A stretch of DNA of 64,000 nucleotides from a virus (Duplodnaviria > Caudoviricetes). The notes under the pieces were generated by a model that was given only the letters and a program-made list of their open reading frames with translations, ran no database searches and had not been told where the DNA came from. Where the stretch lies: IMG/VR virus record IMGVR_UViG_3300022548_000175, positions 4,111 through 68,110 of that record; one strand, given 5' to 3'. Made by a program: the position numbers and the translations under genes. Shown here one piece after another: positions 7,422 through 55,618 of this stretch (positions within the stretch are counted from its first letter, which is position 1; every line of letters starts with the position of its first letter).

Positions 7422-7886
7422 TTAATTATGACAATCCACTATGACAAGATAACCTGAAGTCACGCCCTTATCGAATAAGAATTTTTTAACAGGAGTATCT
7501 TTCAGGTCGTCATCATAATAAACTATTCCATCAACGATAAGAATACAGCATGTTAAATCATCTCGTACTTTACTTAATTTCATAACATCCGATTTATGGA
7601 ATGATGAATTTTTTAATTTCATTCCCGTTCCATGGCAATACCCACAGGATCTTGACGTATCTTTACAAGAGCATTGTGTATAATTTCGATAATCACTTAA
7701 AAATTCATGTTCAGGCAAATGGTCTCCGGACCATCTCCCGCCAATAACATACCAGTCATAAAATTTTTCTTCACAAGAATCGTCATTGTTATAGCTATAT
7801 TGCGACATGATATTATTTATTAATACTTTTAATTCTGAGAGTTTTTTTGGCCTTTGAGGAATCCAGACTTCGCAGTGATAATGCAT
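7422..7886 (-). CDS. Hypothetical phage protein (DWYVIGGRW motif, CxC..CxxC insert)
   Basis: 154-aa ORF; FYDWYVIGGRWSG; CSC...CGYCHGTG. Confidence 0.65.
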   Translation of the reverse strand: MHYHCEVWIPQRPKKLSELKVLINNIMSQYSYNNDDSCEEKFYDWYVIGGRWSGDHLPEHEFLSDYRNYTQCSCKDTSRSCGYCHGTGMKLKNSSFHKSDVMKLSKVRDDLTCCILIVDGIVYYDDDLKDTPVKKFLFDKGVTSGYLVIVDCHN

Positions 7887-33039: not shown

Positions 33040-34917
33040 ATGATTAAATATGTTGAATTTGACTCAATTGATGAAACCGGAAAACATATTATTCCGGCCA
33101 ATTCTATTTATGATTTAAATAAAACAGCGTCAGACACATATTCCCCGGAAATCATGAAAGTTATTTCAAGCATTCAGAGAGACCCAAAGAGATATTATGT
33201 CGTTGTTAACGCTCTTGGATCATATGAAATATGGGGCGCAAATAGAAATGGCGATGCTTTTCCGGAAGACGCTCTTAAACATGTGTCTTTGCGCACTGAC
33301 ATGGGAACTCCAAATGATTACGGATACAAAACATTTGAATATTACGCAAAATGGTTTCGTAATCATGTTAATAAAGAAAACAGTCCATCTTTTGGCGAAG
33401 TTATTTTTTCTCATTGGAACCCGACCCTTCATAGAGTAGAATTAATAGTGGCTATTGACACGGAAAAAGACGGCGAAACTATACAAGCGATTGAAAATGG
33501 AGATCTTGTCAGTGTAAGCATGGGATGCAGAGTCCCGGAAGATTTTTGTAGTATTTGCGGTAATAAGGCAAAAAGCAGAAAAGAATATTGTTTACACGCC
33601 AGAGACCATCTTGGAGAAATCGTGACCGAGGAACTCGCCAGAAAATGGTCTGCACAACTCGGTAAAACAATTATTCCTGGTATGCAAGTTTTTGTATGGA
33701 ATAGAAAACCAAAATTTTTTGATATATCAAAAGTTTATGTGGGGGCCGACAGAACCTCCTATATTCTTGGCAAAGCCGCGGCAAAAAAAACAAAAGCTCG
33801 TTCTAGCCTTGATATTGCAGAATCGTATGGAATTACTGATTCTATGATTGATAAAGCCGCCGCTGTTAAAAAGATAGGAGATATTGACAAAGAAGTCGGG
33901 GCGCTCGGGCCGTCGGATATAGACGGATCGGTTCGGCCGATAAATCCATTAGAAATACTTCCTAAAGCAATTAATGAAAAAATAAACAAAAGCATTGATG
34001 AAGAGCCGGTATTGCCAAGAGAATTTCTTGATGGGATAGCAAAAACAAGACCTCTTGGCTCAATATTTTCTACGATGCTTGGTCTTGGCATTTTTCCAAA
34101 ACCGGTTGAAGTTCAAAGAATCGTTTTAGTGCATATCGGCCATAAACCTCTTGCGGATCAGCTTGAAGAAAATGATAAAATATTTGATTACAATGACGAT
34201 TCCGAATCTATAGATATTCCTGATAATTTTGACGATTCTCTTTCAAGAATATTTATTCCTTTTTTGGCTGAGAGAAGCGGATGCCCATATTTTCTACTCC
34301 CTAGAATTGAATATCTTGATAAACAATCGTCAATGACAAAGCAAGCGTTTTATTCAAGCACGATGGGAAAAGATTATTGGGTTGATCCAAACCCAAAAAT
34401 AGGTTTACAGCAAAACTACGTCATTGCACCGTCACCAGGGTTATTTGCAGGAATAGCCGCTTTATATACAGGGTTAAAAGCCAAGGCCCTTGGAATTGAC
34501 TCAGCTCAAATGGCAAATATTTTTGTAAATAAGCCATGGCTTGCCGCTCTAATAGGGGGAGGAATCATATATACTTTATATAAAACATTAGCCCCAAAAC
34601 AAAATCAAAATGACGCATTAAAACCCGCGACTGACTTCTATGATATTTTGCAAAACACCAATTTAAGCGGGCATCTCAAGAGGGGGTCGGTTGAAAAAAC
34701 AGTAACAAATTTGGGTAGAGGAATGATAGCGGCGGGAATAGCTTTTCCATCGGCTTATTTTATTAACGCCGCAAATCAAAAATCGTTTTCAACAAAAGGA
34801 ATTCCATTATTTCCAATACCAAATTTAAATCCAACAACAACGGCTATCTCGACGGGTATTATAACGGCTTTATCGCCTAAATTAATGGATATAATAAAAA
34901 AATCATTGAAAAAATAA
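33040..34917 (+). CDS. Prohead (maturation) protease with long C-terminal extension
   Basis: NRNGDAF, HVNK, VSMGCRVPEDFCSICG, ISKVYVGAD motifs; located upstream of scaffold and capsid genes. Confidence 0.75.
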   Translation: MIKYVEFDSIDETGKHIIPANSIYDLNKTASDTYSPEIMKVISSIQRDPKRYYVVVNALGSYEIWGANRNGDAFPEDALKHVSLRTDMGTPNDYGYKTFEYYAKWFRNHVNKENSPSFGEVIFSHWNPTLHRVELIVAIDTEKDGETIQAIENGDLVSVSMGCRVPEDFCSICGNKAKSRKEYCLHARDHLGEIVTEELARKWSAQLGKTIIPGMQVFVWNRKPKFFDISKVYVGADRTSYILGKAAAKKTKARSSLDIAESYGITDSMIDKAAAVKKIGDIDKEVGALGPSDIDGSVRPINPLEILPKAINEKINKSIDEEPVLPREFLDGIAKTRPLGSIFSTMLGLGIFPKPVEVQRIVLVHIGHKPLADQLEENDKIFDYNDDSESIDIPDNFDDSLSRIFIPFLAERSGCPYFLLPRIEYLDKQSSMTKQAFYSSTMGKDYWVDPNPKIGLQQNYVIAPSPGLFAGIAALYTGLKAKALGIDSAQMANIFVNKPWLAALIGGGIIYTLYKTLAPKQNQNDALKPATDFYDILQNTNLSGHLKRGSVEKTVTNLGRGMIAAGIAFPSAYFINAANQKSFSTKGIPLFPIPNLNPTTTAISTGIITALSPKLMDIIKKSLKK

Positions 34918-36547: not shown

Positions 36548-37018
36548 ATGCTTGAAATTCTAACTCATTTTTCAAAGCTAGACCGTGTTTCTCGTTCAGT
36601 TGACCCTTCCAGTTTTGTCGCCTCGCCCGGTATCTGGGCGGCGGTACAACCCGACGGCTCGATCGCCAATTGTGACGCGTCTTCAATTAAAACCATACAT
36701 AAACTAGTTATTGGAAGTAAAAGCTCCAATATCTATGAAGGTCATGATGTAGAGGTTGGCCGAGTCGCAACAATGGAAAGTATTGGGGTGCGCTGCAAGG
36801 TCGACAGTGAAGGATACGCTGGCACAATCGCTCAGGGCGATAATTTGTATGTATCATATCAAACGACAGGGACGAGCGCTATTGGAAAACTTTCTTCAAC
36901 AGCCACACCGGTCGGCGGCGAAACCGGATCTCGTGAGGTAGTGGCCCGTTGTGAAGAAGTTGGAACCAATTATATTGTTTTCAAAACCATTAGCCCGTAT
37001 GTAACAACCCTACAATAA
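36548..37018 (+). CDS. Putative head decoration/cement protein
   Basis: Small beta-rich protein directly upstream of the major capsid gene. Confidence 0.55.
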   Translation: MLEILTHFSKLDRVSRSVDPSSFVASPGIWAAVQPDGSIANCDASSIKTIHKLVIGSKSSNIYEGHDVEVGRVATMESIGVRCKVDSEGYAGTIAQGDNLYVSYQTTGTSAIGKLSSTATPVGGETGSREVVARCEEVGTNYIVFKTISPYVTTLQ

Positions 37019-37091: not shown

Positions 37092-38117
37092 ATGATTAAC
37101 GATCTAACCGCTTATCAGCATAATCAGGCTTTTCTTGAAAAAATAGCCACTGTTTCAGGTCAGATGGAGCTTCAGGAGGCTGGTCGTCAGTATCTAAAAA
37201 CCGAACTTATGGAAGCGGCTTTTAGTAGAGCTATAATACCGCAGGAGCCTATCACAACCGCGGATTGTCAGCGCAATGTTAATGATAATTCGCTGTATGT
37301 CATTCGTGATATAGAGCCTGACGCGGAAGCTGTCGGTGTAGATAATATCGGCGAGCCTGATGGTAAATATATTAAGGGCGAGCGATATATCATACCGGTT
37401 GTGAATTTTGCGACCAAACGGTTTCAAATCACAATTGAAGATCTTCGCGCTTATCAGTATAAAATTACCAAGCGTATTGAAGATAAGTCTGTTCCGATTC
37501 TTGAAAAACTTGAGGATAAATTTTTCCTACGCCTTGCGGGAGCTGCTCTTTCAGGCGGTACCGCCGGTTCTCAGAAGGGTGTCAAATATACCGGCGCAAC
37601 AAATCTAACGATTGCTGCTACGGATATCATCAAGATTAAGAATACTTTGGCAAGCGGCATTAACGGAAGTGACGCAAAACGTAAGGAAGTTGGATGTCTT
37701 TTGATGTGCCAGGAAGCGTTTGAGACTGCGGTTGTTCTGCCTGGGGCTGGTGATGATTTCGGTAAGGATCGCGTGCTGAACGGGATCACATCAGACACTC
37801 TATATGGTACAAGAGTAATTCGTACTATTAAGAGTGATATGCTCCCCGTTGGGCACATCTGGGCGTTTACAACTCCAGACTTCCTTGGTCATAATTATGG
37901 TCTTGGCGATCCTCGATTTGAAATCCGTTCAAATTTCGGTCTCATTGAATGGCAGTCGACCGAATCTATTGCTATGGGCATCGGAAACCGTCTTTCGGTC
38001 GCCCTTCTTACATTGAAAGGTTCGGTTAATCCTGGCGGATCCACCAACCTTGAAATTTCTACTGATGGAACGATAGACGCTAATATTTCTAACTATTATG
38101 CGTCTTTGAAAGTGTAA
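37092..38117 (+). CDS. Major capsid protein (HK97-like fold inferred)
   Basis: 341 aa; strong RBS AAGGAG; follows protease/scaffold/decoration genes; followed by a strong terminator. Confidence 0.8.
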   Translation: MINDLTAYQHNQAFLEKIATVSGQMELQEAGRQYLKTELMEAAFSRAIIPQEPITTADCQRNVNDNSLYVIRDIEPDAEAVGVDNIGEPDGKYIKGERYIIPVVNFATKRFQITIEDLRAYQYKITKRIEDKSVPILEKLEDKFFLRLAGAALSGGTAGSQKGVKYTGATNLTIAATDIIKIKNTLASGINGSDAKRKEVGCLLMCQEAFETAVVLPGAGDDFGKDRVLNGITSDTLYGTRVIRTIKSDMLPVGHIWAFTTPDFLGHNYGLGDPRFEIRSNFGLIEWQSTESIAMGIGNRLSVALLTLKGSVNPGGSTNLEISTDGTIDANISNYYASLKV

Positions 38118-38141: not shown

Positions 38142-38175
38142 AGGCCCGGTCCCAGTTTGGGCCGGGCCTTTTTTT
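38142..38175 (+). terminator. Intrinsic terminator after the capsid gene
   Basis: AGGCCCGG-loop-CCGGGCCT-TTTTTT. Confidence 0.85.
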
Positions 38176-39272: not shown

Positions 39273-39360
39273 ACCGCATTATAAAAGACGCAACTTAGTG
39301 AACAATTATTTTATGGATGGACAATAGTTCATCCATTTTTTATTTTTAAAGGGGGAGTTT

Positions 39361-39927
39361 ATGAAAATTACAAAAAATTTTTTTTTCTATGAATTTGGAC
39401 CGTCTGGGTGTAAAAAAGATTGGGCCCCTAATAATGAATTTCAAAAAAGATTAATTATTGATCTTGCGACAAATCTTCAAATTTTAAGAGATATTGCAAA
39501 AGTCCCTATAAACATATCGTGCGGCATTAGAACTATAGAAGATCATTATCGCCTTCAAGGCTCAGGTTATCATCCATCAGAAACAAGCGATCATTTCTTT
39601 GGCGTCGCCGTTCCAATAAAACCAACGAGTCCAAAATATTCAAAATTTGGCGGTACATATAATTTTTCAGTCGGCGCCGTTGATTGCGTGCCTGTAGGAA
39701 TTTCAGTCCAAAAATTTTTTAAAATTTCAATGAAATCATATATAGATTCAAAAACAAAATTCGGTCAAATTATTTATGAAAAAGACCCCATTAGAAATGT
39801 TGAATGGGTCCATCTTAGCAATTTTTATGAAAATTATTTTTCATATGCAATAGTTCAATGGCTTGGAAAACATAAATTTATGCAATCAATTGATGGCGGA
39901 AAGACTTACACAATAGCGTCGCTTTAA
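39361..39927 (+). CDS. Peptidase M15-like (endolysin-type) protein
   Basis: MKITKNFFFYEF, LQILRD...INISCGIR, SDH, AVD, WVHLS. Confidence 0.75.
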   Translation: MKITKNFFFYEFGPSGCKKDWAPNNEFQKRLIIDLATNLQILRDIAKVPINISCGIRTIEDHYRLQGSGYHPSETSDHFFGVAVPIKPTSPKYSKFGGTYNFSVGAVDCVPVGISVQKFFKISMKSYIDSKTKFGQIIYEKDPIRNVEWVHLSNFYENYFSYAIVQWLGKHKFMQSIDGGKTYTIASL

Positions 39928-39938
39928 AAGGAGAAAAA

Positions 39939-40811
39939 ATGGTCAGTATTATTATTCCGGCTAGAAACGAACAATTTCTTCAAAAAACTATTGATAGTAT
40001 AATTAGCGCCGCAAAAGGTGATTATGAAATTATAGCCGGCCTTGATGGTTATCTACCACAGCCTCCTTTAAAAGAGCATCCAAAGCTCAAGTTTATATAT
40101 GAAACCGAAAGTATTGGAATGCGCCCGATAATTAACGAAATGATTAATATCGCGCATGGCGAATTTATTATGAAAGCGGACGCTCATTGCCTTTTTAGCG
40201 AGGGTTTTGACGTTGTATTATCAAAAAACTGCGAAGATAATTGGATAGTTATTCCAAGACAATATTCTCTTGATCCTGATAATTGGACAAGAAATTTAAA
40301 TAAGCCGTTTGTTGATTATTGGTATTTATCGGCGCCAAATACGGCCCCAGAGCATGAGCTCGGCTCTCAAAATAGGGGCCTGCACGGTACCCGATGGCAT
40401 GAATATAAAAATCGCCCTGGAGCGTCAGAAAAACAAATTGATGATACAATGTCATTTCAAGGGTCGTGCTGGTTTATGTCAAAAAAACACGCGGAAAATA
40501 TAGGGGTGATGGATCAAGAAAGTTATGGCAATTTTGCTTATGAAGCCGTTGAGCTTGGCATGAAAACATGGATGTCGGGCGGAAGAGTTGTTGTTAATAA
40601 AAAGGCGTGGTTTGCCCATTTACATAAAGGAAAGCGTTTTGGAAGAGGGTATTTTCTTTCAAAAAGATCTGTAACTATGGCGGCTAAATATTGCATTGAT
40701 ACGTGGATGAATAATAAATGGCCAAAATCAATTCATGATATGAAATGGCTTGTTGATAAATTCGCTCCTGTACCAACATGGGAAAATTTTGACTGGTCAA
40801 AAAAATGGTAA
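39939..40811 (+). CDS. Glycosyltransferase family 2
   Basis: SIIIPARNE, IMKADAH (DxD-like), GSCWFM, ELGMKTW. Confidence 0.85.
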   Translation: MVSIIIPARNEQFLQKTIDSIISAAKGDYEIIAGLDGYLPQPPLKEHPKLKFIYETESIGMRPIINEMINIAHGEFIMKADAHCLFSEGFDVVLSKNCEDNWIVIPRQYSLDPDNWTRNLNKPFVDYWYLSAPNTAPEHELGSQNRGLHGTRWHEYKNRPGASEKQIDDTMSFQGSCWFMSKKHAENIGVMDQESYGNFAYEAVELGMKTWMSGGRVVVNKKAWFAHLHKGKRFGRGYFLSKRSVTMAAKYCIDTWMNNKWPKSIHDMKWLVDKFAPVPTWENFDWSKKW

Positions 40812-40827
40812 TTGTTAAGGAGGAAAA

Positions 40828-41433
40828 ATGGTAAAAGAATGGCTTCATGAACAATGCGCAAAAAAAAGCGAACAAGTTACCCCAATATGTGTTTATAAAT
40901 ATCCAGGACGTCTTGTGAGAGAGGGTTTGGCGTCATGGTTCAAAATGTGGGGGTTTAAAAATGGCGTTGAAATAGGGACTCGTGAAGGAAAATTTGCGGA
41001 AGTTCTTTTAAATACAATTCCTGACCTTCAATTAACATGCGTTGATCCGTGGTCAACGCATGATTATAGATCGCGCCTTATAGGCCAAGAGCAACAAGAT
41101 ATATATTATCAAACATGCGTAAAAAATCTTTCAAAATTTGGAGAACGAGTCAAAATAATGAAAACGTTCAGCATGAACGCCGTTCAAGAATTTAAAGACA
41201 ATTCCCTTGACTTTGTATATATTGACGGTTCTCATGAATTTGACGACGTCATGCGTGATATCATTGAATGGGCTAAAAAAGTCAGGCCTGATGGTATAGT
41301 ATCAGGACATGACTATTATAGATTTAAAAGAGCCGGTGTTGTACAAGCTGTTGATTTATATACACATATGCATAAAATTGATGAATGGTATATTACTGAC
41401 GAAAGAGAGCCTACATGGTTCTGGGCAAAATAA
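40828..41433 (+). CDS. Class I SAM-dependent methyltransferase (Methyltransf_24-like)
   Basis: VEIGTREG, VDPW, YIDGSH, SGHDY. Confidence 0.85.
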   Translation: MVKEWLHEQCAKKSEQVTPICVYKYPGRLVREGLASWFKMWGFKNGVEIGTREGKFAEVLLNTIPDLQLTCVDPWSTHDYRSRLIGQEQQDIYYQTCVKNLSKFGERVKIMKTFSMNAVQEFKDNSLDFVYIDGSHEFDDVMRDIIEWAKKVRPDGIVSGHDYYRFKRAGVVQAVDLYTHMHKIDEWYITDEREPTWFWAK

Positions 41434-41960
41434 TTTCAACAACTCTTAAACAAGAAGTTTTATCAAAATATAAAACCGAAATATTTATTGAAACCGGAAC
41501 AGCCTGCGGTGGCGGCGTAAAAATAGCTTTATCCGTTGGGTTTTCAAAAATATTTAGTATTGAAATAAATAAAGATTTATACCTGGCTAATCTTGAAAAA
41601 TTTAAAAATAATAAAGAAGTGATTTTAATACATGGAGATTCTGGTCTTGAATTTCCATCTCTTATTTCAAAAATAGATCGGCAAGCTACGTTTTGGCTTG
41701 ACGCGCATTTTCATAAAAGAAAACAGGTTATACGAACATGGTGCCCATTATATGAAGAGCTTCAGGCGATATCGACGTCTCCAATTAAAAATCATATAAT
41801 TATGATTGATGATATGAGGGTTTTTGGAAATTCAATGTGGGGAAAAAGAGTTTCAAAGGAAAAGGTTATTGAAAAAATATTGTCAATAAATCCAAATTAT
41901 AAAATTACATATGAAGACAATACAATGGCTGAAAAAGATGTTTTAGTCGCAACAATATAA
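41415..41960 (+). CDS. SAM-dependent methyltransferase-like protein
   Basis: IFIETGT, SIEIN, GDS, FWLDAH, MIDDMR. Confidence 0.7.
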   Translation: MVLGKIISTTLKQEVLSKYKTEIFIETGTACGGGVKIALSVGFSKIFSIEINKDLYLANLEKFKNNKEVILIHGDSGLEFPSLISKIDRQATFWLDAHFHKRKQVIRTWCPLYEELQAISTSPIKNHIIMIDDMRVFGNSMWGKRVSKEKVIEKILSINPNYKITYEDNTMAEKDVLVATI

Positions 41961-41989
41961 ACCGCCCTTCCTGAAATGGTTGGGCTTCT

Positions 41990-42883
41990 TTGCTAAAAAT
42001 TATGAAAATATTTATTAAAACAATAGCGGCGAATTCATTTTGTTATTCAAAAATATCCGAAGCTATAAAGCGGTTTTCGCCTTCTAATTATGAATTTATA
42101 AATAATCCTAAAAACGCGGATCTTTTTATACTTTTTATAAACGGACGATTTCACCATTTTACATTATTTATTGAAGAATTTAAAAAGCCATATGTTGTTT
42201 TTCAAAGCTGCATAAGAAGCACAAGACATAAACACACATCAGTATGGCGTTATATGTGGGAAAATGCAAAATTAGTTTGGAGTTATTACCCCTTAAATAA
42301 ATATATTAAAGACGATGGTGGTAATTGGTCAATTCCAAATTTTTACCACTCTCCGCTCGGGGCTGATGAAACAATTTTCACAATGGATGAAACTAAAACA
42401 AAACGATTTATTACAATGAGTTCCGGGTGGGACGAGTCTCTTGATAATAACTCAGAACATATTAAAGAAGTTCACATTGCCGCCGGAATAGCTCAAAAAG
42501 AAGTGTTTCATCTTGGAAAATTTGATAATCATCCTCCTCATGTTTTTGTTGAACATAATATAAGCGATCACGATCTTGCGTTAAGATATCAAGAGTGCCA
42601 TTCTGTTGTAGGATTAAGAAAAATAGAGGCGTTTGAAATGCCTTTAATTGAGGGTTTATTTTGCGGCATACGCCCTATTGTTTTTGATAGACCACATTAT
42701 AGACTTTGGCATGATCAATGGGGTATTTTTATTCCAGAATCAAGCCCTGGAAATATTATTACAAATTTATTGGAGATTTTTAATAATGGCATACAACCTA
42801 TTACAAAAAAAGAGCGGGAAGAAGCCGTTTCTATGTTTAACTGGAAAAAAATTATTAATGGTTTTTGGGAGCGATTAAAATGA
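41990..42883 (+). CDS. GT-B fold (GT4-like) glycosyltransferase
   Basis: EAFEMPLIEGLFCGIRPIVFD motif. Confidence 0.7.
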   Translation: MLKIMKIFIKTIAANSFCYSKISEAIKRFSPSNYEFINNPKNADLFILFINGRFHHFTLFIEEFKKPYVVFQSCIRSTRHKHTSVWRYMWENAKLVWSYYPLNKYIKDDGGNWSIPNFYHSPLGADETIFTMDETKTKRFITMSSGWDESLDNNSEHIKEVHIAAGIAQKEVFHLGKFDNHPPHVFVEHNISDHDLALRYQECHSVVGLRKIEAFEMPLIEGLFCGIRPIVFDRPHYRLWHDQWGIFIPESSPGNIITNLLEIFNNGIQPITKKEREEAVSMFNWKKIINGFWERLK

Positions 42884-43824
42884 TGCCTGATCTTAGCGTT
42901 ATAATACCGGCAAGAAACGAAGAATGGGTTTATTATACAATTCATGATATAATAAATCATTCAAAATTAAATACGGAAGCTATTGTCATTCTTGATGGAT
43001 ATATGCCTAATGATATCCCCAAAAGCCCAAAAGTAAAAATTATTTATCATAGCGAATCAATTGGACAAAGAGCGGCGACAAATGAAGGGGTAAAAATAAG
43101 CAATGCAAAATATATTATGAAATTAGACGCCCACTGCGCACTTGATGACGGATTTGATATAAAATTAATTTCAGAAATGAAGCCTGAATACACAATGGTA
43201 CCAAGAATGTACAATCTTCATGTATTTGATTGGAAATGCATGAAATGTGGAGATAGAAGATATATGGGGCCGTTGCCGACAAATTGCCCACAATGCGATA
43301 ATACGACTGATTTTAAGAAAAAATTGGTATGGAAGCCAAGATTAAGCAGACGATCTGACTTTATGAGATTTGATAATACGCTTCATTTTCAATATTGGAA
43401 AAATTATGAAAAACGTCCGGAGGCTCAAGCGGATATTGCAGACCAAATGTGTTGCATAGGCGCATGCTGGCTAATGGAGCGCGAAAAATATTGGGAACTT
43501 GACGGCCTTGATGAAAAACATGGCAGTTGGGGGCAAATGGGGGTTGAAATCGCTTGTAAATCGTGGCTTTCAGGCGGAAAACAAGTTGTTAATAAAAAAA
43601 CATGGTTTGCTCATATGTTTCGTACTCAGCCAGGGTTTGGGTTTCCATATCCAAATCCTGGAATTGGGGCAAGAAAATATTCTCGAGATTTATGGATAAA
43701 TAATAAATGGCCAAAAGCAAAATATCCATTATCTTGGCTTCTTGAAAAGTTTTGGCCTGTTGAAGGATGGACTAGCGAAGATCTTGAAAATCTTAAAAAT
43801 GGAACGTTTATTATACCTCAATAA
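42880..43824 (+). CDS. Glycosyltransferase family 2 (paralogue of 39939) with CxxC..CxxC insert
   Basis: SVIIPARNE, MKLDAH, CMKC..CPQC, GACWLM. Confidence 0.85.
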   Translation: MMPDLSVIIPARNEEWVYYTIHDIINHSKLNTEAIVILDGYMPNDIPKSPKVKIIYHSESIGQRAATNEGVKISNAKYIMKLDAHCALDDGFDIKLISEMKPEYTMVPRMYNLHVFDWKCMKCGDRRYMGPLPTNCPQCDNTTDFKKKLVWKPRLSRRSDFMRFDNTLHFQYWKNYEKRPEAQADIADQMCCIGACWLMEREKYWELDGLDEKHGSWGQMGVEIACKSWLSGGKQVVNKKTWFAHMFRTQPGFGFPYPNPGIGARKYSRDLWINNKWPKAKYPLSWLLEKFWPVEGWTSEDLENLKNGTFIIPQ

Positions 43825-43853
43825 AATTTTTATATCCAATAAAGGAGGAGTAT

Positions 43854-44120
43854 ATGCCGTGGAAAGAAGCTGATTTAATAGCCGATTTACAATCTAAATA
43901 TAAAGCGGTAGGGACACCAAATGTTCTGGAGCATTCAGATGAAAAAAATATAACATGGCTGTCTGTAAATGTTTTTGACGTCGCAGAATATAAAAACATC
44001 CCCATCGCACACCGTAAAAACATCGAATATTACGTTTTCCATCGTGGCGAGCCAAACGAAGAAGCTTATTATAAAGATTGGGAACCGCCAAAAATAGCCG
44101 ATTCTGTAGCAAAAATATAG
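43854..44120 (+). CDS. Hypothetical protein
   Basis: RBS AAGGAGGAG; 88 aa. Confidence 0.6.
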   Translation: MPWKEADLIADLQSKYKAVGTPNVLEHSDEKNITWLSVNVFDVAEYKNIPIAHRKNIEYYVFHRGEPNEEAYYKDWEPPKIADSVAKI

Positions 44121-44138
44121 GAATAATAAAATATAAAT

Positions 44139-47100
44139 ATGGCTAAAATATTATCAACAGCGTTTCAACTCAATAATTCCACTGGGAATCAGGATATCAT
44201 TATCCCCGGTATAAATGGTGAAACTGTCAAAGCCGCACGGATTATAGCTGTCTGCGCTACATCCCAAGACATTAATAATGATCATTTATTTATGTCTCAT
44301 GGGTATACTGATGGAACACGCCAGCACTACGTATTTATGGCGTGTAGAGATAATGTAAATCCACAAAGAAGTTTGCGGGGATATAATAATGACGCCGTTA
44401 TATTTCTTCACAGCGTCACTGGTGGTATATATGCAAAAGCGTCATTTGTATCTTTCATTACAAACGGTATTCGCATAAACGTCACCACAGCTCCTTCAAG
44501 TAAAATTTGGTGCCTACTTCAATTATTTGCTGGAGACGATATTTCAACATATGTTACGGCGTTTAATCCGTCGACGTCTATCAACGGCACGGTGACGATT
44601 ACGCCCGGATTCCAATCAGATATTATTTATTTTGGATCGGCGAGTTCATCCGAAACAAATGATGGTGGGTTGGCATGGATCAACAATTCAGAAGGAATCG
44701 CCGTTAGAAATAGTAATCAGGCGTGCATATTCCATTCAATGAGTGATAACATTTCACCATCACTGGCTGATGGCTCGACAATAAATAACCGCGTCGCGAG
44801 GATAGATAACGCCACATTTGAATTAACGTCAATTACAAGCACACAATTTGTTGTTACAACAAGAGACAGCACGGTATCATCCGGTCGTTTTATTATTTGT
44901 CTTGCAATTAAAATCGCAAATGGCGACGCTTCATTGCAGTTTATTGACTCGCCAACGTCAACAGGTAATATATTATATACTAACGCCGGATTTAAGCCAA
45001 CTATTGTAGAAATAGTTGGAAGCCAAGCTCAAGCATATAATGCCTGGTATGATGATGGGCGGGCAGGCGCCTGGTTCTATTACCTGAAAGATGGTAATTC
45101 AGAAAATACCATTGCGACAGGGGCGCGAGACGGCGTATCTACAAGCGACTCTTTTGTTCGCAATGAAATAAACAAACTTATTCATGTTGATCATACACAG
45201 ACGACAAGACATCAGGCTACGTTTATAGAATTTACTTCTAACGGCATTATTCTTAATTTTTCTACCACGGATAGTGCAGTAAGAAAATGGTTTATATTAT
45301 ACATAAAAGAATCTACAGGTACTCCATTAAATCCGTCTCAATGGGGAAGAAAATGTAAATTAACTATAAATCACACAAAAGTATATGAAGATTTGACCAA
45401 TTTTCCCGTCTGTTTAACAAAAGATAACGTTCCATCTGAAATGTTGACGTCCGGCGGCGCATATAGCTGCAAGCCTGACGGCTCAGACATTCGTATATCT
45501 ATGGACTCGGCGGGGACTATTGAATGCCCTATCGAGATAGTCGTTTGTTCTCTAAATAGTAATCCTGCAAACTCATTGTTTGAAGCGCATGTTAAATTGC
45601 CGGCAGTTTCATCAAGTACTGATACAACATTTTATATCTGGTACAATAATCCATCGGCGGTAGGATATGGCAATAATGAGACTTATGGACGCAACAGTGT
45701 TTGGAATAATGATTATGTGTATGTTTCTCATTGCCAATCAAATGATTGCATTGATAGTGCAGGAAATCATAGCAGCGGCTCTCCTCAGAACAATGTAGCG
45801 ACAGCCCCTGGCGTTCAGCAAAATGGCCTTTATCATGACGCTCCAAATAAACTTACAAGAATTCAAGACCATCCTCTTACCAGAATAAATAATCTTTGGA
45901 CATCTTTGCATGGATTTGCACTGGAAGCGTGGGCAAAAACCGATTCTAACTTTAATCCTAATACGGTAGATAACCATTTTTTAAGACGAACATTTATATC
46001 AAAAGGAGCAGATTGGTTTACAAATTATAAACAACATTATGCATTTGGTTTTTGGGATATTGATACATTAGGTTTAGAATATCATGGAGGCAATAATTGG
46101 CAAATCCTAAAACCTAACTCATCACCAGAAGGGTCGTGGGCTTCAAATGTTCAATATTACATTGCAGTCCGAATGACAAAAACTGGCTCAAGTAATCGTA
46201 AATATACATTTGTTATACGTCAACCATCTGGATTTCGTAATGAAACAGAACAAACAGCTCCAGCAGATCCAGATGATCCATCGTCTGGAATACAAAATAG
46301 CTTAAATATTGGAGGGCACACCACCGATTCTGGTACTATATATCAATCTTGGTCAACCGGAGGAATAATACTTGATGAGGTGCGAATAAGCCAAATCGAG
46401 CGCTCCGTTAACTGGCTGAAAACAACTTATGAGACTATTGGAGATCCATCAAATTTTATAACAGAAGGAACCCCAGGGCCGCCTATATCACCATCAGCAT
46501 CCGAATCAGCATCTGAGTCGGCGTCTGAATCAGCATCTGAGTCGGCGTCTATTTCCCCATCAGCGTCAGAGTCAGCATCAGAGTCTGCATCCGAATCATC
46601 ATCTGAGTCGGCTTCAGAATCAGCGTCTATTTCTCCATCAGCATCTGAATCTGCGTCTGAATCAGCCTCGGAATCTGCATCTATATCTCCATCAGCATCT
46701 GAGTCAGCGTCAGAGTCGGCGTCAGAATCCGCATCTGAATCAGCCTCGGAATCTGCATCTATATCTCCATCAGCATCTGAGTCAGCGTCAGAGTCGGCGT
46801 CAGAATCCGCATCTGAATCAGCCTCGGAATCTGCATCTATTTCTCCGTCAGCGTCTGAGTCAGCGTCAGAGTCATCATCTGAGTCGGCGTCTATTTCCCC
46901 ATCAGCATCAGAATCGGCATCAGAGTCAGCCTCGGAATCTGCGTCTGAGTCTATGTCTGAATCGGCGTCAGAGTCGTCATCTATATCCCCATCAGCGTCC
47001 GAATCTTCGTCAGAATCAGCGTCAGAATCGGCGTCTATATCCCCGTCGGCATCTGAATCCGCATCAGAGTCATCGTCTATTTCCCCATCAGCATCAGAAT

Positions 47101-48221
47101 CGGAGTCTGAATCTGCATCAGAATCAGAATCTGTTTCCCCGTCAGCGTCAGAATCAGCATCTGAATCCGCGTCTGAGTCGGCGTCAGAGTCAGCGTCTAT
47201 TTCTCCGTCAGCGTCTGAGTCGGCGTCTGAGTCGGCGTCTGAGTCGGCGTCTCCATCTCAATCAGAATCAGAGTCAGCATCTGAGTCGGCGTCAGAATCA
47301 GCATCTGAGTCGGCGTCAGAATCAGCCTCGACGTCAGCATCTGAGTCTGCATCAGAATCCATATCAGAATCTGCATCTATTTCTCCGTCAGCATCTGAGT
47401 CAGCGTCGGTATCAGCTTCAGAGTCGGCATCAGAGTCGATGTCTGAGTCAGCGTCTATTTCTCCATCAGAATCTGAGTCGTCGTCAGCGTCAGCATCCGA
47501 ATCTGAATCGGAATCAACCTCTGCGTCCGCGTCCGAATCAATGTCAGAATCGGCTTCGATGTCGGCGTCCGAGTCAGCGTCTCCGTCCCCATCAGAATCA
47601 GAATCGGAATCGGAATCGGAATCAGCGTCCGAGTCGGCGTCTGAATCCGCCTCAATATCAGAAAGCATGTCAGAATCATATTCAGAGTCGGCGTCTGCGA
47701 GTGCGAGCGAATCATTTTCTATAAGCCAATCCCCTTCTGAGTCGGCTTCCGAATCCTATTCTGAGTCTGCTTCTGAATCCATGTCAGAATCGCAATCAGA
47801 ATCGGCGTCTGAATCTTTTTCAGAAAGCTGGTCTGAAAGTTTTTCAGAATCAGCAAGCGAATCTGAATCAATATCGCAATCAGCGTCATATAGCGCATCA
47901 GCATCAGAATCTGCGTCGGCGTCCGCAAGTCCGTCCGAACCGCCGGAAACATTTTATGATTTAATGGTTTATAAAACTGAAAGAAATTATCATAAAATAA
48001 CTTGGAAGTTTCAGCCTGAAGAAGGTAAACATATTGATGATTATAACTTTATGGTATATTATAGTTTAACACCTCATTGTAATTTTCAGGTATGTCGTGA
48101 TAATAATGGAAATCCTGTGGTTATTGATGGATCCACAAATCCATTAGAATTTATACATGTATTAAAACATTATGATTTTAATAAATGGTATTATTATAAA
48201 ATCAGGGCTATAAAGAAATAA
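44139..48221 (+). CDS. Large fibre/adhesin-like virion protein: beta-rich N-domain, DUF2341-like and LamG/ConA-like domains, ~485-aa Ser-Ala-Ser-Glu repeat, C-terminal FnIII-like module
   Basis: [17 protein letters not shown] (DUF2341-like); LEAWAK..LDEVRIS (LamG-like); SASE repeats. Confidence 0.75.
46485..47938 (+). repeat. Coding low-complexity repeat (SASE)n punctuated by SISP
   Basis: 12-nt period with synonymous codon variation (tca/tcg/tct/tcc, gca/gcg, gaa/gag). Confidence 0.97.
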
Positions 48222-48595
48222 ATTATTTTAAGGCATATAAAAAAAATTAAGATTGGAGAGCTGGCAATATGAAAGATAAAAATTATTATCGTAGTTTTCG
48301 TGGTGGTATTATTGGCGGGCAGTCATTTGATAATGACGAAAGCGATGTATGGGATGTGCTGCTTGGAAGTCATGATGATTGTGATAATACTGAACAAACA
48401 AATATTGTTGAAGCGCAGGAACTGCCCGACAGCGGCGTTTTTGTTGATGAGCTGGGCGCCGATATTAATTATGAACTTGAATAATTGAAAGGTGGCAGCT
48501 TATGGATATGATAGGCCTATCATTAATAGCTTTGGCGATATGGTGCTTGATTGGGTTTGTGGGCGTTATGTGGAGCGTGTGGAGGGCGACAGAAG

Positions 48596-48742
48596 ATGAC
48601 CGACGCTGAATTATTATATTGGATATACCGAGCGTTAACAGAAGCTCAATCAAAAGGCGTTGGAGAACTGCAATGCGTGGTCGGTGAAATACGATCACGG
48701 ATTGCGGCCCATATTAATACGCATGACGGCGGCAACAGATAA
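48596..48742 (+). CDS. Small hypothetical protein in an inserted cassette
   Basis: MTDAELLYWIYRALTEAQ...; overlaps a preceding 35-aa TM ORF. Confidence 0.4.
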   Translation: MTDAELLYWIYRALTEAQSKGVGELQCVVGEIRSRIAAHINTHDGGNR

Positions 48743-48756
48743 AAAAGGGGAATATA

Positions 48757-49419
48757 GTGAGGGCAAGCGAATCAGCTTCTGAATCATATAGCGAAAGCGC
48801 TTCTATATCGCCGTCTCAGTCTGAATCGGCGAGCGCGTCAGCTTCAGAATCGGCAAGCCCATCAATAGAAATATCCGATCCGGTATATCTCGGAATTGAT
48901 CTTGATGGGGTCCATCTTGTTATGGAGCACGCCGAAAGAATTTTGAATGAAATATTTATAGGAACGCCATGCAAAATAGTTAAAAAAAGGGAAACGGGAC
49001 AAAGGTGCCCAAAATGCTGGTCTGAAAGTCGCCAACAGAGAATATTGACGCATTGTGACGTTTGTTTTGGGAGCGGCTTTGTTAATGGGTATTATTGCGC
49101 GATTGATGCAAGGGTTGCGTTTGATTCCGATCCAAAGAAAAACGATTCGCAAAGAAATTTTGAAGATGTGTATAATGTCATGCGCGCCCGTATGCAAAAT
49201 TACCCTATTGTTCGCCCGAAAGACCTTATTATAAATTGTGATGAAAATAAGAGATATGTAGTATTATATGTTGAAACCACAAAGTTGCCATTAATGGCAA
49301 AAAGTGGTACAATATTATCAGGAAGAGATCATATCGTCAGCCAGTTATTAACCTTGCAAGAGCTTAATCCAGACGATAATGAATATGATTTAAATATTGA
49401 TCTCCTTCCTCCTAGTTAA
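48757..49419 (+). CDS. Putative neck/head-closure protein with short N-terminal SASE repeat
   Basis: RCPKCW..HCDVCFGSGFVNGYY; YPIVRPKDLI; N-terminal SASE stretch. Confidence 0.65.
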   Translation: MRASESASESYSESASISPSQSESASASASESASPSIEISDPVYLGIDLDGVHLVMEHAERILNEIFIGTPCKIVKKRETGQRCPKCWSESRQQRILTHCDVCFGSGFVNGYYCAIDARVAFDSDPKKNDSQRNFEDVYNVMRARMQNYPIVRPKDLIINCDENKRYVVLYVETTKLPLMAKSGTILSGRDHIVSQLLTLQELNPDDNEYDLNIDLLPPS

Positions 49420-54771: not shown

Positions 54772-54801
54772 AAAAAAAAGCCTCTTTTTAGAGGCTTTTT
54801 T
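54772..54801. terminator. Bidirectional terminator
   Basis: AAAAAAGCCTCT-ttt-AGAGGCTTTTTT. Confidence 0.85.
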
Positions 54802-55357
54802 CTTTTTTTCTATTTTTCTCCAGCCACATTATTGATATACAATTCCAAGCCGCATGATAAAGATGTTGAAATCCGCTTTCAACATCATATATATCACCTT
54901 TCCAATATTGTTCAAGATGACGGTTTAACGCCGAATAGTATCGATGCAGCTCGACATTTTGCCAATTATTAGCGTTATATTTATTTGCGCCATAAGTATA
55001 AATTTCCACTATTTTTGTCGTCCATTCTGGGTTTATAAGATCCCACCTTTGAACAAATTTGCTTGTTGAAAAAACTTCTTCATACGAATATTTTCTTGGA
55101 TCCGCCAACATCAAAGTTCCAATCATTGCACCCATTAATGGATGAAAATCTCCAAGACGATAATTTCGCTCCATATACCATTGTGCAATATTTGAACGAA
55201 TTATGTTATAAATGTGAGAACGATTAAAAATTATTTCTTTTTTTTTCAACATATACATTTTAATAAATGGCTTTATAAAAGCCGCCATTGATATAAAATA
55301 TTCTATTGGAACCAAATGCCAATCAGCTTTCCCTTTATCAAATTTTAACCCGTTCAT
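54788..55357 (-). CDS. dATP/dGTP diphosphohydrolase-like (DUF5664) protein, apparently tandem-duplicated; probable start MNGLKFD
   Basis: GLKFDKGKADWHLVP; YGANKY..NW; YYSALNRHL; ESGFQHLYHAAWN. Confidence 0.8.
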   Translation of the reverse strand: MNGLKFDKGKADWHLVPIEYFISMAAFIKPFIKMYMLKKKEIIFNRSHIYNIIRSNIAQWYMERNYRLGDFHPLMGAMIGTLMLADPRKYSYEEVFSTSKFVQRWDLINPEWTTKIVEIYTYGANKYNANNWQNVELHRYYSALNRHLEQYWKGDIYDVESGFQHLYHAAWNCISIMWLEKNRKKEKSL

Positions 55358-55386
55358 ATGTGTGCGTTCCTTGTGCGATTGCTTTT

Positions 55387-55618
55387 GTTCAAACGAAATA
55401 GAACATTTAGTGTGCCACGCCGAACACAGACGAGGGTTCCGTACCCAGCTCGGGGCGCCCTCCTTCCCCGCCGGTCGTTCTAATTTTCGCGAGCGAATAC
55501 CGAGCAGTGTTATCATCCCCTTTTTCGATATTCTCGGGTCACTGCGAGAGTATGCAGCGAGCGAAAATTAGAATAAGATTGGATAGATGAAGCATCTATC
55601 CGCTTATCTCCTTTGAAC
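55387..55618 (-). ncRNA. Candidate retron-type ncRNA no. 2
   Basis: Arms GTTCAAA/TTTGAAC with G (55611) opposite G (55394); 9-bp hairpin 55581-55601; long hairpin 55478-55573 with 13-bp perfect base; GC-rich hairpins 55410-55475. Confidence 0.6.

Follow-up and report, generated by a model that had tools for sequence, protein, structure and literature searches.

The window, i.e. the whole stretch of 64,000 nucleotides analysed here, belongs to a viral record that covers only ~38% of the genome of a large uncultured phage. Between its capsid genes and a neck gene lies a cassette of enzyme genes (39939-43824) comprising two GT2-type transferases, a methyltransferase of the Methyltransf_24 family and two ORFs whose resemblance to enzymes is weaker, followed by a small ORF and the gene for a long fibre protein, P0001. 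The features are as follows.

36548..37018, +, capsid decoration/cement protein (AlphaFold model of alignment A2, pLDDT 80)
37092..38117, +, major capsid protein (Atlas feature search, 0.98 to HK97-fold major capsid protein clusters; context and lineage marker)
39939..40811, +, GT2a, soluble GT-A glycosyltransferase, paralog of GT2b (PF00535 GT2, E 1.3e-9)
40828..41433, +, class I SAM-dependent methyltransferase, Methyltransf_24 (PF13578, E 2.3e-19)
41415..41960, +, second methyltransferase-like ORF, weak (RMNT_CmcI, E 0.0019, under the cut-off)
41990..42883, +, possible GT-B/GT4-like protein, weak (phrog_2170 glycosyltransferase, E 8.8e-5)
42865..43824, +, GT2b, core enzyme, soluble GT27-like GT-A transferase with a rubredoxin-like zinc-ribbon insert (PF00535, E 7.3e-13)
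43854..44120, +, ORF of 88 aa between cassette and fibre gene, no annotation
44139..45338, +, P0001 residues 1-400, tandem duplicate of a ~190-aa domain, fold not recognised (internal BLAST between the halves, E 4e-5)
45339..46484, +, P0001 residues ~401-782, DUF2341 + LamG_3-like (concanavalin-A-like) module, putative lectin-like head (PF10102 and PF13385 in distant homologs)
46485..47948, +, P0001 residues ~783-1270, strict (Ser-X)n tract of 488 residues, proposed O-glycan acceptor stalk (from sequence)
47949..48221, +, P0001 residues 1271-1360, FN3-fold domain (alignment A5)
48757..49419, +, neck stopper-like protein with an N-terminal ~34-aa Ser-X tract (48766-48867) and a CxxC...CxxCxGxG motif (sequence and fold matches)

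The major capsid and decoration proteins lie on one side of the cassette, which begins 1.8 kb past the capsid gene, and the neck stopper-like protein lies on the other. The stretch from 39336 to 48221 has no strong terminator, and neighbouring genes in the cluster are separated by gaps of -19 to +29 nt, in agreement with an initial annotation that had placed the cluster inside the structural operon. The same annotation described one small ORF followed by a long Ser-repeat protein, and this order was confirmed, the 88-aa ORF (no family match, and no homolog among the fetched loci) preceding a 1360-aa ORF with the 488-residue Ser-X repeat. Its gene set of GT2, MTase, MTase-like, GT4-like and GT2 holds for both GT2 genes and the first methyltransferase, whereas the labels MTase-like and GT4-like are weak, with matches below family thresholds: for 41415-41960 because the sole match, RMNT_CmcI, is sub-threshold, and for 41990-42883 because the glycosyltransferase signals are faint (phrog_2170, and a PF00534/GT4 match at window positions 42530-42787 of 16.2 bits against a cut-off of 26.4). 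Both ORFs have orthologs in L081, the closest cassette-bearing relative, where the former is 59% identical and in the same position and the latter is 46% identical.

P0001 (44139-48221) is encoded by one open frame of 4083 nt. Its N-terminal region is homologous to P0002 (56%) and to the L081 fibre (33%), and its first 60 residues resemble the start of a gene located just after a baseplate module in phage L002. Pfam returned no match on P0001 itself, and residues ~401-782 aligned with the DUF2341 region of a protein in contig L041 (BLAST E 1e-11). In the Ser-X tract, 242 of the 248 Ser residues fall in a single dipeptide register, far above chance, with E (96), A (86), P (24) and I (17) at the X positions. 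The tract is missing from P0002, the 56%-identical homolog, whose end coincides exactly with the tract start. All four TCN codons are used in the tract, accounting for 96% of its Ser codons, and the DNA repeat units mostly match at 63-80%, partly bearing out the synonymous diversification noted earlier; one 78-bp unit, however, departs from it, being 96% identical over 2.9 copies. The C-terminal domain of P0001 corresponds to the domain with which the neck stopper protein begins in relatives (alignment A5), and the A5 model places residues 1-107 in an FN3 fold (Z ~10). The DUF2341 + LamG_3-like module (residues ~400-780) and the conserved FN3 domain stand at opposite ends of the stalk.

The neck stopper-like protein could also be identified at the level of fold, matching the phage 812 neck (Z 10.8 over 150 aa), the 812 stopper (9.2), the Douge connector (9.1) and the Pam3 neck (9.0). 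The Ser-X tract at its N-terminus, the second in this phage, had been overlooked in the initial annotation. For the decoration protein, the top 11 VIA-align matches were all small capsid accessory chains (Z 11.1 for BB1, 10.1 for Pam3, 9.9 for XM1 and 8.4 for the TW1 capsid stabilizing protein). No Ser-X or Ser/Thr-rich tail was found on the capsid and decoration proteins of this phage, whereas cassette-bearing relatives encode extra decoration paralogs with N- or C-terminal Ser-rich tails of ~40-145 aa. The glycan shield proposed earlier is too strong a term for this phage, in which tracts occur only on one fibre and the neck protein; capsid-wide display was seen only in relatives, for which the term shield fits better, and "glycosylated neck fibres" is the better description here.

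By their sequences, the core transferases are GT27-like, with polypeptide GalNAc-transferases as the closest solved relatives, although the match is remote, extends to the catalytic motifs only and includes no lectin domain. A search of the PDB with the GT2b family profile had GalNAc-T1 at the top (1xhb, 4.8e-12), followed by T2, T9, T10, T4, T7 and T12, with 12 further GalNAc-T sequences besides 1xhb. Conserved residues in GT2b include D88/H90 (DxH), W222-G223...E228...W234...G237-G238 (Gal/GalNAc-T motif) and a third His, H250, and its zinc-ribbon insert matched NF045720 (1e-4). The best solved relative of GT2a is likewise a polypeptide GalNAc-transferase (6s22, E 8e-4). Enzymes of this kind act on Ser/Thr-rich polypeptides and initiate mucin-type O-glycosylation in animals. 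None of the cassette enzymes has a transmembrane segment or signal-like hydrophobic stretch, which is consistent with modification in the cytoplasm, the site of virion assembly. GT2a and GT2b gave no tblastn match in 50,697 GenBank phage records.

To what extent the cassette and Ser-rich proteins occur together could be judged from 40 viral contigs with GT2b homologs, which come from unrelated phages and have only GT2a, the methyltransferase and GT2b in common with the window. GT2a homologs were present in all 40 loci and methyltransferase homologs adjoined GT2b in 26, and gene fusions (GT2b-GT2-MT in L007, GT2b-GT2 in L036) indicate that the enzymes are tied together; this comparison supports the view that the methyltransferases go along with the transferases, and the enzyme encoded at 40828-41433 is probably a sugar O-methyltransferase. 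Long Ser-rich ORFs on the same strand adjoined the cassette in 31 of the 40 contigs, and in each of the nine exceptions one or both flanks are shorter than 5 kb. The co-occurrence of Ser repeats and glycosyltransferase clusters in phages, named as a check when the locus was first annotated, was found. For example, L041, an unrelated contig, carries DUF2341, LamG_3 and a Ser-X tract beside the same cassette. The cassette is also shared with Patescibacteria and DPANN genomes, and Ser-rich ORFs were found near the transferase at 50 of 80 MAG loci. At these loci, 60 such ORFs lay downstream and 4 upstream of GT2b (32,027 versus 296 Ser-rich residues), even though more flanking sequence was covered upstream (631 kb) than downstream (476 kb); 62 of the 64 were on the transferase strand, and where the downstream flank reached 5 kb or more, 34 of 41 loci had a downstream Ser-rich ORF. 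This comparative evidence supports a functional link between the enzyme cassette and Ser-X tracts, with the tracts on virion proteins.

Within the phage lineage, marked by a major capsid protein of 66-94% identity in 38 related viral contigs and L081, cassette and tract were both present at 13 loci and both absent from 11, with no discordant locus. However, this concordance amounts to 2 to 4 independent contrasts, too few for significance in a sign test, and the "no cassette" state is only partly assessable in L043 and L044, which have short flanks. L081 (capsid protein 94% identical) encodes a neck protein tagged with Ser-X and a 1477-aa fibre in which SESASE repeats account for ~940 aa, whereas the near relative L043 (91%) lacks both cassette and tract within its short flanks. 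In L074, the tracts are present beside only weak GT8-like and methyltransferase ORFs.

Taken together, these data make it fairly likely that the locus encodes a phage-borne protein O-glycosylation module acting on Ser-X tracts of virion proteins, and the same pairing of enzymes and fibre in many unrelated phages and in ultra-small bacteria suggests that the phage probably builds sugar-coated stalks. During late expression, the soluble GT27-like GT2b, together with GT2a, would draw on host nucleotide sugars in the cytoplasm and place sugars on serines of the (Ser-X)n tracts in two virion proteins, the neck stopper protein and the fibre P0001. Elongation of the glycans would fall to the remaining transferase-like ORF, and their O-methylation to the methyltransferase(s). 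A tract modified in this way would form a stiff, protease-resistant, mucin-like stalk. Mucin domains extend ~0.25 nm per residue, and on this assumption 488 residues would give a stalk of roughly 120 nm. P0001 is most likely attached at the head-tail neck by the FN3 domain at its C-terminus, a domain that in relatives is covalently joined to the neck stopper protein, and would present the DUF2341/LamG-like module outward as a binding head; since its N-terminal 60 residues resemble a gene start beside a baseplate module in L002, the orientation could also be the reverse. The initial annotation had proposed a glycosylated, possibly O-methylated stalk with a lectin-like head, of which the enzyme-tract link and the lectin-like module at the far end of the stalk are supported by the comparison; the use of the tracts as acceptors, the donor sugar, glycan methylation, the attachment point on the virion and a role in adhesion or protection are what we infer.

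The tracts may instead be unmodified flexible or acidic linkers, with the cassette acting on another target in the infected cell, such as teichoic acid, the S-layer or a lipid-linked glycan of the host envelope, so as to exclude superinfecting phages or mask receptors. Phage glycosyltransferases altering host serotype are well known (reviewed in PMC12619734), the cassette is mobile across viral contigs, and an acceptor is not readable from sequence; however, we regard this explanation as unlikely, given that the enzymes lack membrane segments, that their nearest solved relatives act on polypeptides and that the strong directional adjacency to Ser-rich ORFs in ~120 independent loci would be left unexplained. 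Slightly less likely again is that the transferases glycosylate other virion proteins (capsid/decoration), in the manner of mycobacteriophages, with the Ser-X tract as a bystander. The proximity of the capsid gene would suit such targets, but Ser/Thr-rich tails are lacking from both of these proteins in this phage and, in relatives, the decoration paralogs co-occurring with the cassette are exactly those with Ser tails, which points back to the tracts.

Hypermodification of phage DNA bases seems improbable. In PHROG, the methyltransferase falls into a family labelled "DNA methyltransferase", DNA-decorating phage glycosyltransferases are common (PMC12619734, citing Pyle et al. 2024), and the window has a dATP/dGTP diphosphohydrolase-like gene, so that some manipulation of the nucleotide pool is likely. 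However, the 68-kb record, an incomplete genome, contains no thymidylate-synthase-like hydroxymethylase, Pfam assigns the methyltransferase to Methyltransf_24 and not to any DNA methyltransferase family, GT27-like motifs and adjoining Ser-rich ORFs would be unexpected for DNA enzymes, and a Woesebacteria chromosome groups the same enzymes with nucleotide-sugar synthesis genes and Ser-rich proteins. That the long repeat is merely repetitive DNA or an assembly artefact, not translated as annotated, is hardly credible: repeats are prone to assembly errors and antisense ORFs are also present (47258-47668 and others), but the open frame links a conserved N-terminal module in frame to a conserved FN3 domain, 242 of the 248 Ser residues keep one register and this design recurs in L081 at 62-68% DNA identity.

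We found no paper describing this system, which shares features with several known ones. Like eukaryotic GT27 enzymes (PDB 1xhb, 2ffu, 4d0t), the phage transferases have a GT-A fold, DxH, the Gal/GalNAc-T motif and a third His, with proposed acceptors that are Ser/Thr-rich, proline-containing and of low complexity; they differ in being ~300 aa long, in carrying a zinc-ribbon insert and in lacking a membrane anchor and a ricin-type lectin domain, and the similarity is remote (E 5e-12 with the family profile). In the SRR glycoproteins Fap1, GspB, SraP and PsrP, Ser-X repeats are glycosylated in the cytoplasm by soluble, adjacently encoded enzymes, and a binding domain is carried on the stalk. 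The analogy drawn earlier with these adhesins is upheld only at the acceptor level, in the long Ser-X dipeptide repeats (SASE/SAST-like); soluble enzymes encoded nearby and a putative binding domain on a stalk are further points of resemblance. There are also differences: P0001 has neither an aSec signal peptide nor an LPxTG motif, SecA2/SecY2 was not found, and the product would be part of a virus particle rather than a cell-wall adhesin. A GtfA/GtfB identity for the core transferases was rejected, the enzymes being GT27-like, and a GtfA/B priming pair is not established because the only GT4 trace is sub-threshold; among the matches to the GT2b profile there is also one to S. parasanguinis GalT1, in its GT2 domain (5hea, E 3.8e-6).

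Staphylococcal SD-repeat proteins (ClfA, Sdr) are glycosylated by SdgA/SdgB, which protects the stalk from proteolysis (PMC3794999). They share with P0001 a strict Ser-X dipeptide stalk, O-glycosylated on serine as we propose here, but use another enzyme family, are anchored in the cell wall and have almost only Asp at X. In mycobacteriophages (Che8, Corndog/cluster O, Myrna), two reports (PMC11600133, PMC12363180, citing Freeman et al. [quoted passage not shown] No sequence relationship with those phages was detected for GT2a and GT2b by tblastn in the 50,697 GenBank phage records, however, and the present system differs from theirs in its strict and long Ser-X arrays, which measure 34 to 488 aa here and reach ~1000 aa in other phages, in the placement of these arrays on decoration paralogs as well as on fibres and the neck protein, and in a cassette shared with Patescibacteria and DPANN genomes.

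The window takes in 64 kb of an IMG/VR virus record that is 68 kb long and about 38% complete (CheckV); the phage is a member of a lineage of large uncultured phages whose contigs reach 208 kb. The main genes around the cassette and the fibre are as follows:

26257-27939, large terminase, upstream of the virion genes
33040-34917, protease-scaffold gene, upstream of the virion genes
36548-37018, decoration/cement protein, 156 aa (AlphaFold model, pLDDT 80)
37092-38117, major capsid protein (Atlas feature score 0.98 to HK97-fold capsid clusters)
48757-49419, neck stopper-like protein (from the fold of a modelled relative, alignment A5)

The top matches of the decoration protein model were exclusively small capsid decoration/cement chains (Z 11.1 for BB1, 10.1 for Pam3, 9.9 for XM1, 9.7 for HFTV1 and 8.4 for the TW1 capsid stabilizing protein). 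PHROGs and Pfam returned nothing for most of the structural genes or for the proteins carrying strict (Ser-X)n dipeptide repeats (Ser-X tracts) in other phages, NCBIfam gave no match above its cut-offs, megablast with the cassette-fibre region gave zero matches in GenBank phages, and PDB sequence-profile searches were unproductive for the capsid protein, decoration protein, fibre N-terminus, methyltransferase and ORF 41990. Strong terminators are located at 38142-38169, after the capsid gene, and at 39313-39336; from 39361 to 48221 the gaps between genes range from -19 to +29 nt with no strong terminator within, and the cassette and fibre gene are placed between the capsid genes and the neck stopper-like gene. 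The conserved 188-aa ORF at 39361-39927 (+), which has a weak 'endolysin' PHROG match (phrog_894, E 1.7e-12) and lies inside the head-neck module in all relatives, could encode a virion-associated cell-wall hydrolase. Elsewhere, ORF 54788-55516 (-) contains a dATP/dGTP diphosphohydrolase N-terminal domain (PF18909, E 7e-28; phrog_801); enzymes of this type serve phages that replace a DNA base, for example in the 2-aminoadenine pathway.

The cassette is followed by an 88-aa ORF and then by the 1360-aa fibre ORF (P0001, 44139-48221), which is organized, by residue, as follows:

1-400, a domain of about 190 aa in tandem duplicate (E 4e-5)
about 400-780, DUF2341 + LamG_3 type, from homologs and alignment to a protein of the unrelated contig L041 (E 1e-11)
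783-1270, Ser-X tract
1271-1360, FN3 domain

Of the 488 tract residues, 248 are Ser, and 242 of these fall in a single dipeptide register, with X chiefly E, A, P and I, bearing out the long serine-rich repeat that the initial annotation had placed after one small ORF. The synonymous codon diversification claimed for it holds in that the Ser codons are 96% TCN, with all four in use, and most repeat units match at 63-80%; the 2.9 copies of one 78-bp unit, however, are 96% identical, so that most of the tract is old and diversified while a part was duplicated recently. Pfam found no match on the fibre at E <= 0.01, its more distant homologs P0003-P0008 carry both PF10102 and PF13385, and residues 419-552 are those aligning to the DUF2341 region of the L041 protein. 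There is no hydrophobic segment at the fibre N-terminus (maximum KD19 1.47, residue 250), and the C-terminus is the FN3 domain. A homolog of 796 aa and 56% identity, P0002, stops exactly at the tract start, indicating that the tract and everything after it are an add-on. Scanning of viral contigs with P0002 found nothing, and an Atlas search with fibre residues 1-400 found unnamed viral clusters only. On an unrelated contig, L002 (IMGVR_UViG_3300031673_001884), the gene start at 7514-7690, directly after a myovirus baseplate module (Dit-like, Pam3 gp18 plug, gp41 hub), is 64% identical to the first 60 residues of the fibre; by this likeness, other phages may use the fibre N-terminus as a module for docking at the baseplate. 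The fibre gene also contains antisense ORFs of 77-136 aa (45592-47952, (-); e.g. 47258-47668), three of them within the repeat, which are by-products of the repeat codon periodicity and not genes.

The enzyme cluster that precedes the fibre gene comprises five ORFs:

39939-40811, GT2a (PF00535, E 1.3e-9)
40828-41433, methyltransferase (Methyltransf_24, E 2.3e-19)
41415-41960, second methyltransferase-like ORF (sub-threshold CmcI-type match only)
41990-42883, possible GT4-like ORF (faint: phrog_2170, 8.8e-5; PF00534, 16.2 bits, cut-off 26.4)
42865-43824, GT2b (PF00535, E 7.3e-13)

Pfam families therefore confirmed GT2a, the methyltransferase and GT2b, whereas the ORFs annotated as methyltransferase-like and GT4-like fell below family cut-offs; the only GT4 trace in the cluster is the sub-threshold PF00534 match, and none was reported by Pfam. 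In a search of all PDB sequences with a GT2b profile built from 26 family members (alignment A4), polypeptide N-acetylgalactosaminyltransferases came first, with GalNAc-T1 (4.8e-12) followed by T2, T9, T10, T4, T7 and T12. GT2b contains the DxH metal motif (K86-x-D88-A-H90-C versus LDAHC in T1), the Gal/GalNAc-T motif (W222 G223 ... E228 ... W234 ... G237 G238 versus WGGENLEISFRIWQCGG) and the third His ligand (H250, AHMFR versus GHVFR in GalNAc-T1), and the catalytic residues D88/H90, the W222-G238 motif and H250 are kept across the 26 members. The best solved relative of GT2a is also a GalNAc-T. These phage transferases are of about 300 aa (GT2b, 319 aa), with no hydrophobic or transmembrane segment and no lectin domain match. 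Family-wide, the catalytic domain is interrupted by a rubredoxin-like CxxC...CxxC zinc ribbon (GT2b residues 123-153, window 43231-43323), which might recognise substrate. GT2b of other loci has a 234-aa C-terminal extension resembling a further GT-like domain, not a lectin; it is absent as a separate ORF from the window, the sole match being weak and on the methyltransferase ORF. No sugar-nucleotide genes were found in the window. Among 1.84 billion protein representatives, the GT2b family accounts for 427 clusters at E <= 1e-30, many of them multi-domain fusions, and tblastn with GT2a and GT2b at E <= 1e-3 gave zero matches in 50,697 GenBank phage records, including the glycosylating mycobacteriophages.

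Scanning of viral contigs with GT2b yielded 40 loci with 45-62% identity, whose only genes in common with the window were GT2a, the methyltransferase (26/40) and GT2b, so the cassette is mobile. Long Ser-rich ORFs (SPSASV, SPSESP, SSTP and similar), with tracts of 40 to about 1000 residues, lie beside the cassette on the same strand in 31 of these loci; in each of the other nine, the sequence on one or both sides is shorter than 5 kb. In L007, GT2b, a second GT2 and the methyltransferase form a single 935-aa protein, and in L036 two transferases are fused. The protein directly after the cassette in L041 combines DUF2341, LamG_3 and a Ser-X tract, which is the architecture of the window fibre.

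The association extends to cellular genomes. A scan of one genome per species gave 127 GT2b matches, of which 80 loci were kept, mostly in MAGs of Patescibacteria (Woesebacteria, Levybacteria, Saccharibacteria, WWE3 and Paceibacterota) and DPANN archaea, with complete chromosomes included. Ser-rich ORFs numbered 60 downstream of GT2b and 4 upstream, although the DNA examined was 476 kb downstream versus 631 kb upstream, the upstream halves serving as an internal base-rate control; 62 of the 64 were on the transferase strand, and tract residues amounted to 32,027 downstream versus 296 upstream. A Ser-rich ORF was present in 34 of the 41 loci with at least 5 kb downstream, and the longest single ORFs reached 2467 aa. 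For example, the locus in a complete Woesebacteria chromosome (CP066693.1, 206638-227630), bounded by TatC and ComM, consists in order of nucleotide-sugar genes (Polysacc_synt_2 dehydratase, UDP-GlcNAc 2-epimerase) and a carbamoyltransferase, small transferase/methyltransferase genes, GT2b and three Ser/Pro-rich proteins with tracts of 171-457 aa. These surrounding cellular genes indicate that the system is cellular as well as viral, and suggest that Patescibacteria apply the same system to their own surface proteins.

Within the lineage of the phage itself, a capsid-protein scan gave 38 loci with a conserved order of protease-scaffold, 35023, 36031, decoration, capsid, 38157, 38703, 39361 and then an FN3-like + neck fusion protein. 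All cassette-bearing loci carry Ser- or Thr-rich tracts: extra decoration-protein paralogs have them as N- or C-terminal tails of roughly 40-145 aa, and the FN3-neck protein has one at its N-terminus. Cassette-free loci with long flanks have no tracts. One locus, L074, has tracts and no BLAST-detectable cassette, with weak GT8-like and methyltransferase ORFs just downstream. The 168-kb contig L081 (CAZUBH010000002.1; capsid protein 94% identical) is collinear with the window across the whole cassette, and then encodes a 1477-aa fibre with a repeat of about 940 aa and a Ser-X-tagged, unsplit FN3-neck protein; L043 (capsid protein 91%) lacks both cassette and tract. The binning of L081 in an 'uncultured Thermoplasmatales archaeon' MAG is probably an error: the contig is likely a phage genome and, among near-complete relatives of the window, the best. 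When mapped on the capsid-protein tree, cassette and tract are both present in 13 loci and both absent in 11, with no discordant locus and four changes per trait; since these provide only two to four independent contrasts, a sign test on independent pairs was not significant, and the pattern is consistent with linkage and is not statistical proof. In L051, L052 and L054 (15563-17329 and equivalents), L076 and L078, Ser-X is replaced by Thr/Pro-rich tracts (T 43-54%) on the neck protein or neighbouring proteins, which suggests a different acceptor flavour or enzyme specificity.

A second Ser-X tract of about 34 residues, overlooked in the initial annotation, opens ORF 48757-49419. In every relative having FN3, the neck protein starts with this domain (alignment A5). 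In the modelled FN3-neck protein, residues 1-107 have the FN3 fold (Z about 10), and residues 109-277 matched the neck of phage 812 (Z 10.8 over 150 aligned residues, rmsd 4.6), the 812 stopper (9.2), the Douge connector (9.1) and the Pam3 neck (9.0), and the Foldseek E was 5.8e-4; in this model (pLDDT 73), residues 109-277 are predicted, at the level of fold only, to be a neck ring subunit. In the window, FN3 and the neck domain are separate polypeptides, parted by about 540 bp (48222-48756) containing small ORFs, one of them acidic and 71 aa long (48269-48484). No compared locus had a homolog of the 650-bp stretch 48222-48870 that includes this segment. From comparison with L081, the simplest reading is that recombination within repeat DNA fused the fibre tract to the neck-protein tract, so that the fibre would now end in the FN3 domain of the neck protein.

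Taken together, the cassette enzymes probably use the tracts as acceptors. In the cytoplasm, the soluble GT27-like enzymes would glycosylate the tract serines with host nucleotide sugars as donors, and the remaining cassette enzymes would extend and O-methylate the glycan. With less confidence, we propose an orientation and role for the fibre, in which it may dock at the neck via FN3, with a stiff mucin-like stalk carrying the LamG-like module at its tip. Relatives may coat their whole capsid by the same chemistry, through the tagged decoration-protein paralogs; a 'shield' therefore fits these relatives but fits this phage less well. The initial observation is thus real, and its interpretation as glycan display is partly supported and sharpened.

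Action of the cassette on the host surface instead is disfavoured by the lack of membrane segments in the enzymes and by the adjacency statistics of GT2b and Ser-rich ORFs. Other virion proteins as acceptors are likewise disfavoured, as only the tagged paralogs co-occur with the cassette. The enzyme family and the cellular loci argue against DNA modification, and no thymidylate-synthase-like gene was found in the record, which is about 38% complete. That the repeat is an artefact is unlikely, because an open frame runs through it into conserved domains on either side and because L081 is collinear.

The preferred reading, tracts as acceptors, might be extended tentatively to a previously undescribed mucin-type O-glycosylation system of prokaryotes and viruses, in which soluble GT27-like transferases and accessory transferase/methyltransferase arrays act on portable (Ser-X)n modules. 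Patescibacteria and DPANN would employ this system for giant surface proteins, and many unrelated phages for capsid decoration, neck and fibre proteins. Here, the repeat DNA may also have been the recombination joint fusing a lectin-headed fibre to the neck FN3, and the phage could thereby share the glycoprotein coat type of its probable ultra-small host. If true, the Ser-X module would be attachable to any virion protein, and GT2b family plus Ser-X tract would be a sequence rule predicting which virions are glycosylated and, in Patescibacteria and DPANN with their nearly uncharacterised surfaces, which surface proteins are. The enzymes would be akin to the animal initiators of mucin glycosylation, with a bearing on the evolutionary origin of GT27, and such small soluble O-glycosyltransferases with a simple peptide tag might find use in glyco-engineering.

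To our knowledge, mycobacteriophages are the only phages shown to glycosylate their own particles, a modification that blunts antibody recognition; the present system, if real, would be a different and far more widespread one among environmental phages. As in the mycobacteriophage type, phage glycosyltransferases and an O-methyltransferase are found with virion genes, a likeness in gene content, but the Che8, Corndog and Myrna enzymes show no sequence relationship to GT2a or GT2b by tblastn and their acceptor is also different. The likeness to Gram-positive serine-rich repeat (SRR) glycoproteins drawn in the initial annotation stands for the long serine-rich dipeptide acceptor but not for secretion and priming, components of which are absent or not established: the fibre is without the extended aSec signal peptide and LPxTG anchor, the 68-kb record (about 38% of the genome) has no SecA_DEAD match for accessory SecA2/SecY2, and the GT4-type GtfA/GtfB pair is represented by a single sub-threshold match (PF00534). 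The Ser-X acceptor repeats of staphylococcal SD-repeat proteins also resemble the tract. With CAZy GT27, GT2b shares the GT-A domain, the DxH and Gal/GalNAc-T motifs and the third His ligand, but not the C-terminal ricin-type lectin domain or the type II membrane anchor; judged from sequence, the cassette enzymes may work most like GT27 transferases while failing these two architectural features. Literature searches on Ser-rich repeats with glycosyltransferases in phages, on GT27 in phages and on Patescibacteria found no description of the pairing in the papers covered. The kind of system, virion/protein O-glycosylation, would thus be a known one, and what appears to be new is the combination of GT27-like enzymes with a portable Ser-X acceptor module.
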